Assembly (NCBI RefSeq): GCF_046462455.1
Contig: NZ_JBKGVC010000021.1
Coordinates: forward strand, 9,966-33,965
Direction: 5' to 3'
From: Fusobacterium sp.
GTDB taxonomy: Bacteria > Fusobacteriota > Fusobacteriia > Fusobacteriales > Fusobacteriaceae
DNA length: 24,000 nucleotides
Position 1 is the stretch's first letter; every line of letters begins with the position of its first letter. Shown piece after piece: positions 1,127 through 12,018 of this stretch. The notes under the pieces were generated by a model, which did not search any database, was not told where the DNA came from, and saw only the letters and a list, made by a program, of their open reading frames with translations. The translations under genes and the position numbers were made by a program.

Positions 1127-1155
1127 AAAAAAAGGCAATCTGCTAGATTGCCTTT
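1127..1155 (-). terminator. Intrinsic terminator / attenuator hairpin in the leader of the NSS transporter
   Basis: The minus strand reads AAAGGCAATCT-AGC-AGATTGCCTTT followed by TTTT-A-TTT. This is a perfect 11-bp stem, a 3-nt loop and a 7-U run counting the stem end. It lies about 30 nt upstream of the transporter ATG, inside the 5' leader and not after a gene. Confidence 0.7.
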
Positions 1156-1228
1156 AAAACACTATATAATAATACATACTCCTGGTAACATCCAGAAATA
1201 TATACATAAAAATCATATTATTTCGGAG

Positions 1229-1348
1229 TTACATAGATAGAGATATGTTATCAATAGACACAAGCCAATTTCTAACATTAAAAATTCTATGAAGTTTTAC
1301 TATGTAGCTCCACCACCAACATTGAAATTTAATATTAGTCTGTCTCAT
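1229..1348 (-). CDS. Candidate leader peptide, 39 aa (MRQTNIKFQCWWWSYIVKLHRIFNVRNWLVSIDNISLSM), with three consecutive Trp codons
   Basis: ATG at 1346-1348 sits 9 nt downstream of a strong SD, AGGAAAGGGAGG (1358-1369). Codons 11-13 are TGG TGG TGG (1310-1318), with a fourth TGG at codon 28. TAA stop is at 1229-1231. The ORF lies between a sigma70-like promoter and the terminator at 1127-1155. It is too short for the ORF track. Confidence 0.5.
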   Translation of the reverse strand: MRQTNIKFQCWWWSYIVKLHRIFNVRNWLVSIDNISLSM

Positions 1349-1383
1349 GTTTGATAACCTCCCTTTCCTAAATTCTTAAAACA

Positions 1384-1412
1384 AGTATATTATAAAAAAA
1401 GACATTTGTCAA
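1384..1412 (-). promoter_or_regulatory. Sigma70-like promoter for the leader ORF / NSS transporter
   Basis: Minus strand TTGACA (1407-1412), 17-nt spacer, TATACT (1384-1389). It sits about 15-25 nt upstream of the leader SD. Confidence 0.4.
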
Positions 1413-2155: not shown

Positions 2156-2869
2156 TCACTCTATTCTTTCTCCGTCTTTGTAGAGAATTACTCCTGACAA
2201 AGTACCATCTTCACGATACCTTTCACATCTTCCATAGAGTTTACCCATATAGTATACATTCTTTTCCTTGATTTTTCCATCAGGATAATATGTTCTTGCC
2301 ACTCCCGACAAAGCATCCCCTTCATAAAACCCATCAAATTTCAGTTTTCCATTTTCATAATATTCTTTATAATGACCGTTTAATTTCCCATTTTTATAAC
2401 ATGTTTCCATTTCAAGAGATCCATTTTCATAGTAATGTCCATGCCAACCATACAAAGAATCATCAATATAATATCCTTTCTCTCTTAAATTTCCATTTTT
2501 ATAATATACTTCCCATGGTCCATTAAGTCTTCCCTTATGAAATACACAAGTTGACTCCAGTTGACCATCCTCATAGTAACTTCTAGATATTCCACAAAGT
2601 TTTCCATATACATAAAGATCCACTTGTTTAATATTTCCATTTATATAGTAAAATTTGCTCACTCCGTGAAGCATCCCATTTCGATAACAACTTTCAACTG
2701 CTAGATTACCATTTCGATAATATTCCTTATACTCTCCATCTTTTCTTTTTGGCTCTGTATACAATTGATAATTTAAAATACTCTCCTCTTTTGAAAGATC
2801 ATTATAAAGATCTAGAGTAGCTAAAATCATGCATATACAGATGCTAACCAATAAAATTATTTTTTTCAT
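2156..2869 (-). CDS. MORN-variant (YwqK-like) repeat protein with N-terminal signal/anchor
   Basis: 237 aa. The N-terminus MKKIILLVSICICMILATL is hydrophobic. About 8 tandem units of 23-24 aa follow, of the form G-x-x-x-x-Y-Y-x-N/D-G-x-L-x-x-x-x-x-Y-x-x-G-K-L (aa 45-235, nt 2165-2737). Confidence 0.8.
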   Translation of the reverse strand: MKKIILLVSICICMILATLDLYNDLSKEESILNYQLYTEPKRKDGEYKEYYRNGNLAVESCYRNGMLHGVSKFYYINGNIKQVDLYVYGKLCGISRSYYEDGQLESTCVFHKGRLNGPWEVYYKNGNLREKGYYIDDSLYGWHGHYYENGSLEMETCYKNGKLNGHYKEYYENGKLKFDGFYEGDALSGVARTYYPDGKIKEKNVYYMGKLYGRCERYREDGTLSGVILYKDGERIE

Positions 2870-5910: not shown

Positions 5911-5938
5911 AAAACTATCATTATAAGGAGTCATGGAG

Positions 5939-7006
5939 ATGAAAAAAGAAAAAAAATATCAAAGATATGAGATTATAAAACCTTTTTTAGATGGAAAAAT
6001 AACTCTGAAAGAGATAGCTCAAAACAGTGATGTATCTTATCCCACTCTCAAAAGATGGGTAAAAAGTTATAAGAAAAAAGGAATAGAAGGACTGGACGTA
6101 AAAAAAAGATCTGACAGAAACTCTTTCAGAAAAGCTGACAGATCAATAATATCAAAGATTGAATCTCTTTATAAAAAAAACAAGGAAAAAACTCTACTCT
6201 CTCTATATGATGAAGTAAAATCTTCACTTGAGACCACATTGAGTTTCAATACCTTTTATCGTATTGTAAACAATCTTGACAGTTATCTTAAAAATAAATC
6301 TAAATTTCTTATAAATAAAAATATTGAACTTGGAGATGTATACATAGTCAAGGTTTTTCTTTCATACCACTTTGTAAACTGCAACGGGCAAAAAAAACTC
6401 CCTATAATACTTCTGGCTTTCAATGCCTCAACACTTGATTTTATAGATTTTCACATTGCTTTTGATACAAAATTTACAAGCTCTATCTCCGCTTTTTTGA
6501 GAGAGATAATACTCAAAGGTGCTGAAAACTATAATATTTCATATCTTCCAAAAGAGATACTGGTGGACACTTCAATATCTATTCCTAAAAAAGTGAAGGA
6601 ACAGATATTTGAAAAAACAGAGATTAAGATCCTTGATTTTGAAGCTAACAACAAAGAGATGGATGAGTTTATAACCTATATGAGTAAAGATCTCAACAAA
6701 ACATTTGGCGAGGAGACAGATTATGAAACCTTTCACAATTTTTTTAAAAATTACTCTGTATTCTACAACCTTGAAGCCAAAACAGGACTTTCTGAGAAAA
6801 ATTTTGAAAAGCTCAATATATTCCTGCCAAAGATAAAAAGAAAAATATCCAATTACGGAATAAGAATAAACAACAGATTTTACAATGCAGATTTTCTTAA
6901 GGATTATATAGGGAAAATTTTACACATTATCTACAACCCTATAAATTTTACCTCACTGAAGGTTTATAATAAAAAACATTTTATTGATGAGATAAAAATA
7001 AAATAA
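5939..7006 (+). CDS. HTH protein related to Mu/Tn552/TnsB-type DDE transposases, apparently lacking the catalytic acidic triad (possible exapted regulator)
   Basis: The N-terminal YEIIKPFLDGKITLKEIAQNSDVSYPTLKRWVKSYKKKGIEGL resembles the HTH opening of this transposase class. The C-terminal GIRINNRFYNADFLKDYIGKILHIIYNPINFTSLKVY resembles the Mu-transposase C-terminal barrel. The central region (DVYIVKVFLSY / ILLAFNASTLDF) lacks the expected D...D. The track start at 5933 is 2 nt from the SD, so the second ATG at 5939 (8-nt spacing) is preferred. Confidence 0.55.
   Translation: MKKEKKYQRYEIIKPFLDGKITLKEIAQNSDVSYPTLKRWVKSYKKKGIEGLDVKKRSDRNSFRKADRSIISKIESLYKKNKEKTLLSLYDEVKSSLETTLSFNTFYRIVNNLDSYLKNKSKFLINKNIELGDVYIVKVFLSYHFVNCNGQKKLPIILLAFNASTLDFIDFHIAFDTKFTSSISAFLREIILKGAENYNISYLPKEILVDTSISIPKKVKEQIFEKTEIKILDFEANNKEMDEFITYMSKDLNKTFGEETDYETFHNFFKNYSVFYNLEAKTGLSEKNFEKLNIFLPKIKRKISNYGIRINNRFYNADFLKDYIGKILHIIYNPINFTSLKVYNKKHFIDEIKIK

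Positions 7007-8967: not shown

Positions 8968-12018
<3,051 letters not shown>

Follow-up and report, generated by a model that had tools for sequence, protein, structure and literature searches.

What controls a gene for a sodium-dependent transporter of the NSS/SNF family when it is preceded by a short open reading frame (ORF) with three consecutive tryptophan codons and by an intrinsic terminator? The question is raised by the minus strand of a 24,000-nucleotide stretch of Fusobacterium sp. DNA (assembly GCF_046462455.1, contig NZ_JBKGVC010000021.1, forward-strand positions 9,966 to 33,965), referred to here as the window and used for all coordinates unless another locus is named. The answer that we favour is a ribosome-mediated (leader-peptide) transcription attenuator, which would read the supply of charged tRNA-Trp and control a probably Trp-specific transporter; on balance we regard this reading as probable, but well short of secure.

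Anatomy and conservation of the leader

The elements listed in the initial annotation of this DNA, and their order, are real. A sigma-70-type promoter (1384-1412, minus strand; TTGACA at 1412-1407, 17 nt, TATACT at 1389-1384; 11/12 consensus matches) places the start of transcription near 1377, and is followed on the same strand by a strong Shine-Dalgarno (SD) sequence, AGGAAAGGGAGG (1358-1369), with 9 nt between its GGAGG and the ATG of an ORF of 39 codons plus stop, MRQTNIKFQCWWWSYIVKLHRIFNVRNWLVSIDNISLSM (1229-1348, stop codon 1231-1229). Codons 11-13 of this leader ORF form the Trp run TGGTGGTGG (1310-1318), the proposed regulatory codons, and a fourth TGG lies at 1267-1265. Exactly 73 nt separate the leader stop from the intrinsic terminator AAAGGCAAUCU-AGC-AGAUUGCCUUU with its U-run (1127-1155), the hairpin itself being 1155-1131 (AAAGGCAATCT-AGC-AGATTGCCTTT). 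It had been described as an 11-bp hairpin with a 7-U tail; the hairpin and a run of seven T (1133-1127) are both there, but three U were counted twice, and the stem has either 8 G/C-containing pairs followed by U7 or 11 pairs followed by U4. The end of the terminator is 31 nt from the transporter ATG, close to the 30 nt or so first given. The transporter gene (NCBIfam NF037979; 1-1109, minus strand; SD GAGGAGAGG at 1109-1101, ATG at 1095) is truncated by the start of the window, which retains a 365-codon 5' part, and the gene upstream of the leader encodes a HAD hydrolase, with its stop at 1474.

The Trp run is unlikely to be a product of chance in this AT-rich DNA, as had been supposed. TGG accounts for 1.18% of codons in the long ORFs of the window, a frequency at which the probability of WWW in 39 codons is about 6e-5; WWW is found in 1 of the 96 ATG-started small ORFs (sORFs) of 20-60 codons in the window, and TGGTGGTGG occurs once in the 24 kb against 0.07 expected. 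The folding of the leader RNA is likewise stronger than that of 200 out of 200 shuffled sequences (z = -3.8). The decisive evidence for a leader over chance is conservation in relatives.

When the transporter fragment was used to scan one genome per species, 56 loci were obtained from Fusobacterium, Cetobacterium and many Clostridia, and the three closest of these (86-88% identical) bear the same sORF with WWW. A protein search with a 41-residue, N-terminally extended leader query returned a single match, P0001, a 40-residue leader orthologue that carries the NCBI annotation hypothetical protein (Fusobacterium) and occupies the same position in CP060637.1 and other assemblies. Additional leader variants came from searching the contigs of further transporter homologues, and three more sequences from a metagenome scan with the pattern TGGTGGTGG-N45-75-TTGATAACATA, the matches to which were mostly due to chance, with true homologues at only 6 of the loci examined. 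About 10 distinct Fusobacterium leader sequences are thus available from several species, all of them before an orthologous transporter, and the sORF and its Trp run are conserved among them; even the strongly diverged leaders, at loci L193 and L192, keep the sORF, its frame, the SD and the Trp run. Of the refuting conditions named in the initial annotation, those open to computation all went in favour of its reading.

What is conserved is a unit with the order promoter, SD, sORF, hairpin, terminator and transporter SD. Its near-consensus promoter is present in every variant and its GGAGG-type leader SD in all, and the -10 hexamer together with a downstream CTTATYCTAAG block is retained in all full-length variants. 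The gene upstream varies (HAD hydrolase, KDGP aldolase, an NSS paralogue or divergent AzlCD), and the unit is linked to the transporter, not to this changing neighbour. Between the U-run and the transporter SD there are 8-25 nt, or about 40 nt in L179 alone, and the spacer sequence is unconserved; with so little space, the transporter must be transcribed through the terminator. These properties bear on the notion that there is no attenuation at all, the hairpin simply ending transcripts of the HAD-hydrolase gene or the sORF while the transporter has its own promoter or is subject to translational control only. No terminator was seen between the HAD gene and the leader promoter, as this notion would have it, and weak promoter-like matches (9/12) overlap the terminator at 1138-1110 and 1125-1096. 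However, transcripts from these positions would have little or no SD, the short spacer offers no conserved sequence, and the leader both owns a conserved promoter and keeps to the transporter through changes of the upstream gene, so we consider the absence of attenuation very improbable.

The leader ORF is 31-40 codons long in 10 variants, and its indels, of which there are six or more, are all multiples of 3, with the start, the strong SD and the stop preserved. Substitutions, on the other hand, are spread evenly over codon positions 1, 2 and 3 (15, 17 and 19 variable sites of 38), and 26 of the 28 variable codon columns are amino-acid-changing, the other 2 being synonymous only. WWW is present in 7/9 distinct peptides and WW in those of the L186 and L183 types; the leader of the F. 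mortiferum type, MRAQYWWSYIE..SIDNISLSM, has WW only, at codons 6-7. The peptides of L193 (MLKLQCWWWRNQIQNDSQICNVRIMSKFIDI) and L192 (..SQYWWWSYIEQLYSSFFNVRNCLDFIESISI) retain WW(W) though the rest differs. The invariant blocks of the ORF, namely the Trp run, AAUGUUAGA and AUUGAUAACAUAUCUCUAUCUAUGUAA, all coincide with predicted pairing partners in the RNA. Since frame, start, stop and a few codons are kept while the protein sequence drifts, this pattern fits selection for translation of the leader but not for the sequence of the peptide. One idea about the position of the run, that a ribosome queued behind another (a disome) on WWW some 30 nt from the AUG would cover the SD, was dropped on account of the WW at codons 6-7 in L186 and L183.

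An RNA of this kind might instead be another type of riboregulator, a ligand- or protein-binding leader or a small RNA with the ORF and its Trp codons as by-products, or the ORF might encode a functional small protein. The coincidence of invariant ORF blocks with base-pairing segments and the unusual degree of structure are in keeping with a riboregulator, as is the stable transcript of about 250 nt that the terminated leader would constitute. Nevertheless, the frame, start, strong SD and stop survive at least six indels, all of them multiples of 3, the Trp run persists amid diverged flanks in L193, and an unrelated leader of the same gene, described below, also has Trp codons. Neither the RNA nor the peptide matches a family: Pfam gave none for the leader peptide, and Rfam at the gathering score, applied to the window and 59 related loci, gave nothing relevant (no Trp_leader RF00513, T-box or riboswitch), which rules out a T-box, a riboswitch or a known Trp leader. 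At E <= 10 over 1000-1520, Rfam gave only weak matches confined to the terminator hairpin. A functional small protein is further opposed by the lack of purifying selection on the peptide sequence. We therefore judge these alternatives unlikely.

The terminator and candidate pairings that would compete with it

If the leader is an attenuator, its terminator should have competitors. The terminator hairpin is present in 10/10 variants, in which 96% of its positions are paired and 3 pairs show compensatory AU<->GC changes, so that it is conserved in relatives with covariation; conservation of its loop, CUA(G/A)C, is unusually high.

Upstream of the terminator lie several predicted structures. The minimum free energy (MFE) and centroid structures of the window leader contain a long hairpin, P1 (1235-1368, minus strand), whose 5' arm comprises the SD, the AUG and codons 1-9 and whose 3' arm comprises codons ~20-37 including UUGAUAAC, which pairs with GUUAUCAA; the Trp codons are in the apical loop. 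The lower helices of P1 are 80-93% paired across the variants, and the fold of L193 has an analogous pairing with two compensatory changes. For this hairpin we propose a role as an anti-antiterminator and as a shut-off of re-initiation. The RNAalifold consensus of 10 variants contains an alternative helix, P1b (1225-1311, minus strand). It joins GGAGCUACAUAG (1311-1300), on the immediate 3' side of the Trp codons, to CUAUGUAACUCC (1236-1225), within which the leader stop codon falls; a small hairpin, AUGUUA/UAACAU, is enclosed by the helix. P1b belongs to the MFE structure in L179, L001, L062 and L002, and is retained with different letters (GAGAAAUCAAAU/AUUUAAUUUCUC) in L193. It corresponds to the classical '1:2' pairing, and stalling at the Trp codons would place the ribosome over both the P1b 5' strand and the top of P1. 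Between the leader stop and the terminator there is also a 14-bp hairpin, P2 (1172-1205, minus strand), a hairpin being present at this position in all variants with differing sequences; P2 may be a spacer or a pause hairpin. The P2 strands resemble an anti-SD (UAUUUCU) and an SD (AGRGAUA), and the 3' one has a possible second partner in AUAUCUCU, where the sORF ends.

No antiterminator had been found by eye. A search for the best duplex partner of the 5' half of the terminator, made for each variant, does give a candidate: GUUAGA(0-2 nt)UUG(G)CUU within the ORF is the top partner in 9/10 variants and pairs with AAG(G)CAA-UCUA(G/A)C, the 5' arm and loop of the terminator. In the window the strand is GUUAGAAAUUGGCUU (1262-1276, minus strand; codons V-R-N-W-L) and its partner is AAGGCAAUCUAGC (1154-1142). 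The GUUAG element is shared, pairing with CUAAU (codons 4-5) in P1 and with UCUA(G/A)C in the candidate antiterminator, and the two pairings are thus mutually exclusive. Of the alignment cells in the candidate antiterminator, 95% pair, compared with 24-44% for slid controls. Stalling was simulated by placing a ribosome on the first Trp codon and masking all RNA as far as its 3' boundary, before the 3' arm of the terminator is made; under this mask the antiterminator is the pre-terminator MFE structure in 8/10 variants, the exceptions being the window and L062. With a 30-nt footprint mask it is stall-specific in L193 and L186, and also in L003 when the first Trp codon is in the A site.

A second leader gives independent information on the signal. 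At L010 and L012, from other Fusobacterium genomes, orthologous transporters (~72% identical) are preceded by an unrelated leader, MKKLNNNY..FSWCWC*, and then by a different terminator. Here the Trp codons are inside the 5' strand of a long helix. The opposite strand of that helix shares bases with UGUAUCUG, whose own partner is CAGGU(A/G)CA in the terminator arm and loop; in simulation this pairing is complete only with a ribosome on the Trp codons, and the leader thus behaves, in the model, as a textbook attenuator. The existence of two unrelated Trp-codon leaders before the same gene argues strongly that Trp is the signal.

A scheme can be proposed on this basis. Transcription would begin about 30 nt before the leader ORF of 39 codons with its strong initiation signals. 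If Trp is plentiful, the ribosome would pass the WWW codons and reach the stop; behind it, or in the absence of translation, the middle of the ORF would be locked in P1, with the SD, AUG and early codons, or in P1b. Formation of the terminator hairpin would follow, halting transcription 31 nt short of the transporter start. A shortage of Trp-tRNA would leave the ribosome stalled on WWW, where it would mask the 5' partners of P1 and P1b; the freed GUUAGA..UUGGCUU could pair with the emerging 5' arm and loop of the terminator, RNA polymerase would read through, and transporter would be produced to scavenge Trp. The parts in this scheme, their order and conservation, the reading frame, the Trp run and the terminator are observed; we infer which segment serves as antiterminator, the kinetics, in which direction Trp regulates and what is transported.

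Several features of the leader weigh against this scheme, most of them concerning the antiterminator. Full-length thermodynamic folds, and those of the part 3' of a stalled ribosome, contain no antiterminator, and the terminator always wins. The candidate is weak (-7 to -10 kcal/mol) and in individual sequences does no better than shuffles (p = 0.05-0.37); its covariation is thin, consisting of 2 double changes, both in L193, and 38/500 shuffles reach the observed value. Its strands are ~100 nt and one hairpin apart, and their pairing is a pseudoknot if lower P1 is intact. For the window's own sequence, the model does not release GUUAGA under a footprint on WWW, nor does it predict the antiterminator. 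The geometry is atypical too, since the Trp codons occupy the apical loop of P1 and are followed by the stop only after 26 codons, and the second leader mixes Cys with Trp codons. A mutually exclusive candidate pairing has thus been found where none was seen by eye, but it is absent from equilibrium folds and from the prediction for the window; GUUAGA..UUGGCUU, retained by every variant, is a reasonable candidate for the antiterminator, for which the modelling is suggestive.

The same geometry allows a different design. Rather than being a classical starvation sensor, the leader could sequester its own ribosome-binding site in a hairpin whose apical loop holds the Trp codons, and the position of the ribosome, or a Trp-dependent arrest by the nascent chain, could choose between a pseudoknotted long-range antiterminator and the intrinsic terminator. 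If true, such a design, with an intrinsic terminator in place of Rho, could induce uptake on Trp excess, feeding tryptophanase, by a mechanism that would be without precedent. We consider it unlikely.

The transporter, its likely substrate and its neighbours

How well does the transporter fit a tryptophan signal? All of the homologues carry PF00209 (SNF), and the window protein is 93.7% identical to that of L179, 86.7% and 83.9% to the second and first of two F. mortiferum paralogues, and 70% to the tnaA-linked transporter of L033. In 31/56 orthologous loci (65-72% identical), the transporter gene is immediately preceded, on its own strand, by a gene of the tryptophanase family; in L033 this lyase scores 717 bits to NF009709 and its gene ends 17 nt before the transporter start. 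The loci with a tryptophanase-family gene and then an NSS transporter (L011, L013-L016, L019-L023, L025-L030, L032-L035, L038, L040-L043, L046, L049, L050, L052, L053 and L055) are from many Clostridia and one Fusobacteriaceae metagenome-assembled genome. Their lyases form groups ~75-80% and ~52% identical to the L033 enzyme, the second of which is not clearly TnaA or a tyrosine phenol-lyase.

In the F. mortiferum-type contig L183 (515-6581; also L184 and L185), there are two tandem NSS transporters, 80.6% identical to each other. The first is leaderless, follows a PAS_6/HTH_22 (YheO-like) regulator gene and is beside a divergent tnaA-like gene for a beta-eliminating lyase, while the second is preceded by the Trp-codon leader, and it is to this second type that the window protein belongs. 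The arrangement points to a single substrate under two separate controls, one catabolic and one for scavenging.

Trp is the best guess for the substrate. The earlier expectation of a Trp-specific transporter thus gains from the tryptophanase-family neighbours in relatives but not from the window's own locus, where the transporter is not adjacent to tnaA, a fact that tells against the favoured reading. So does a tyrosine phenol-lyase gene in L003 (437-1837; TIGR02618, 854 bits, above the cut-off), ~1 kb upstream of the leader with the HAD hydrolase between, which makes an aromatic substrate other than Trp possible. The nearest solved relative of the transporter is LeuT, and the window protein has Val at the position of LeuT F259, as do the best-scoring LeuT F259V chains, 3QS4 and 3QS6, which is a hint of Na+-dependent Trp transport. 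LeuT and DAT are too distant for specificity to be assigned from structures.

The proximity to tryptophanase raises the question of whether the leader resembles that of the E. coli tnaC-tnaA-tnaB operon, in which a leader peptide with a critical Trp is likewise linked to Trp catabolism and uptake. TnaC senses free Trp by way of its nascent chain and blocks Rho; W12, D16 and P24 are conserved residues of the E. coli peptide, arrest is at the stop codon, and the terminator is Rho-dependent. The Fusobacterium leader could be a comparable sensor of free Trp, in which the arrested leader ribosome blocks termination and excess Trp induces the transporter to feed tryptophanase. The catabolic context of the orthologous transporters, usually beside tryptophanase, would suit such a sensor, the main group has SIDNISLSM as an invariant C-terminal block, and the W-x4-D of ..NWLVSIDN.. 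loosely recalls W12..D16 of E. coli TnaC. Against this, the peptide is unconserved outside the Trp run and the RNA-pairing blocks, as the 26 amino-acid-changing columns attest, and it has no terminal Pro. The C-terminal block is absent from L193 (..NVRIMSKFIDI*) and L192 (..NCLDFIESISI*) and the second W from L002, but the RNA pairings are kept; the terminator is an intrinsic one 73 nt past the stop and not a Rho site at the stop, and a run of Trp codons accompanies it. Moreover, the F. mortiferum paralogue beside tnaA is the leaderless one. A TnaC-like sensor is accordingly a rather improbable explanation.

Directly after every transporter of the clade there is a hydrophobic ORF of 33-36 residues (MNTSAVIMMVFGCTIVWGGLL..; L179 5766-5873, L183 4507-4608 and 6471-6581, L186 4505-4615) with a weak match to PF16951 (MaAIMP_sms), the small subunit of the Met/Ala importer MetPS; the transporter may need such a small subunit. 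A TyrRS-like gene (PF00579 + PF22421) follows the transporter and small subunit in L179 (6161-7387), L183 (6651 onward), L186 (4686-5909) and L192 (1958 onward). No T-box was detected upstream of this gene, the gap being promoter-like AT-rich sequence. Co-regulation of tyrS was considered and rejected, given its own promoter-like region, the intervening terminator-like hairpin (L179) and the absence of tyrS downstream in L001 and L003.

Other features of these loci are further removed from the leader. Lysine riboswitches occur in L001 (5312-5484, minus strand, 97 bits) and L003 (6388-6560, minus strand, 91 bits), upstream of a gene for a 532-residue membrane protein (L003 4692-6290, minus) that is convergent with the transporter gene, and a c-di-GMP-I riboswitch (L017 5369-5453, plus strand, 73.5 bits) is downstream of a Cetobacterium transporter locus. 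In the window, a 357-residue ORF (5933-7006, plus strand) with weak N-terminal matches to IS481, IS630 and ISNCY transposases lies between genes for a phosphotransferase system (PTS) glucose IIBC protein and an amino-acid antiporter, and may be an insertion element. A 237-residue repeat protein (2156-2869, minus strand) has YYxNGxL repeats, is MORN-like and has a weak match to the Leptospira LIC20035 adhesin; the L179 locus, otherwise syntenic, lacks its gene.

Relation to known leaders and biological meaning

To which known systems is the leader related? In design, the closest comparison is with the trpL attenuators, such as E. coli trpL (RF00513) and the trpL of Corynebacterium glutamicum with its three tandem Trp codons. 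As in trpL, tandem Trp codons are translated within a short leader ORF, an intrinsic terminator separates this ORF from the structural gene, the segment that follows the Trp codons can pair with that around the stop codon (the '1:2' helix), and read-through is to be expected on shortage of Trp-tRNA. However, there is no sequence or covariance-model similarity, and trpL controls biosynthesis whereas the Fusobacterium leader precedes an uptake transporter. The ORF is also longer (31-40 codons compared with 14-18 for trpL), the Trp codons are much farther from the stop, the long hairpin sequesters the leader's own SD, and the two putative strands of the antiterminator are separated by an extra hairpin.

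Leader-peptide attenuation was listed in a 2010 survey only for Proteobacteria, Actinobacteria and, newly, Firmicutes (PMC2965389), whereas the present leader is from Fusobacteriota. Examples outside Proteobacteria are the His leader of Bacillus hisS/hisZ (PMC2965389) and the Leu-rich ilv-leu leader of S. aureus (PMC5794164). Like the Fusobacterium leader, these are independently evolved ORFs that combine runs of cognate codons with a terminator and are often annotated as short hypothetical proteins; they differ in amino acid, target genes and phylum, and there is no homology.

The control of Firmicutes Trp transporters (trpP/yhaG) by a T-box with a Trp specifier or by TRAP follows the same logic, in that a terminator/antiterminator leader couples uptake to Trp or tRNA-Trp. 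The sensors differ, being the binding of uncharged tRNA or the TRAP protein, and no array of GAG/UAG repeats, as for TRAP, was seen by eye.

As to the transporter, TnaT of Symbiobacterium thermophilum and Tyt1 of F. nucleatum are bacterial NSS transporters for Trp and Tyr, respectively, and TnaT lies in a tnaA-transporter operon. The window transporter shares their NSS/SNF fold, Tyt1 is also from Fusobacterium, and orthologues of the window transporter are found in tnaA-transporter operons, a likeness drawn without direct sequence comparison. The window gene differs in having its own leader-controlled promoter, and in relatives the transporter is followed by the MaAIMP_sms-like small subunit.

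The literature search found no description of a Trp leader in Fusobacterium or of an NSS transporter controlled by a leader peptide, and Rfam has no model for one, so the earlier impression that the element is undescribed stands. The control principle is familiar; what would be new is its presence in Fusobacteriota, its association with an NSS transporter and its atypical geometry, in which the leader is long and sequesters its own SD, the Trp codons are remote from the stop and the candidate antiterminator acts over a long range.

If an attenuator of this kind is indeed present, leader-peptide attenuation would extend to Fusobacteriota and to an uptake gene rather than a biosynthetic operon. 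P0001, at present a 'hypothetical protein', would be re-annotated as a leader peptide, and the leader would provide a compact Trp-responsive part for Fusobacterium genetics. The two unrelated leaders and the tandem paralogues amount to a natural experiment in anabolic versus catabolic control of one substrate. For the bacteria themselves, the attenuator would indicate a likely substrate and a physiological role for an unannotated clade of NSS transporters in gut Fusobacterium, whose tryptophan and indole metabolism attracts interest in connection with the host.

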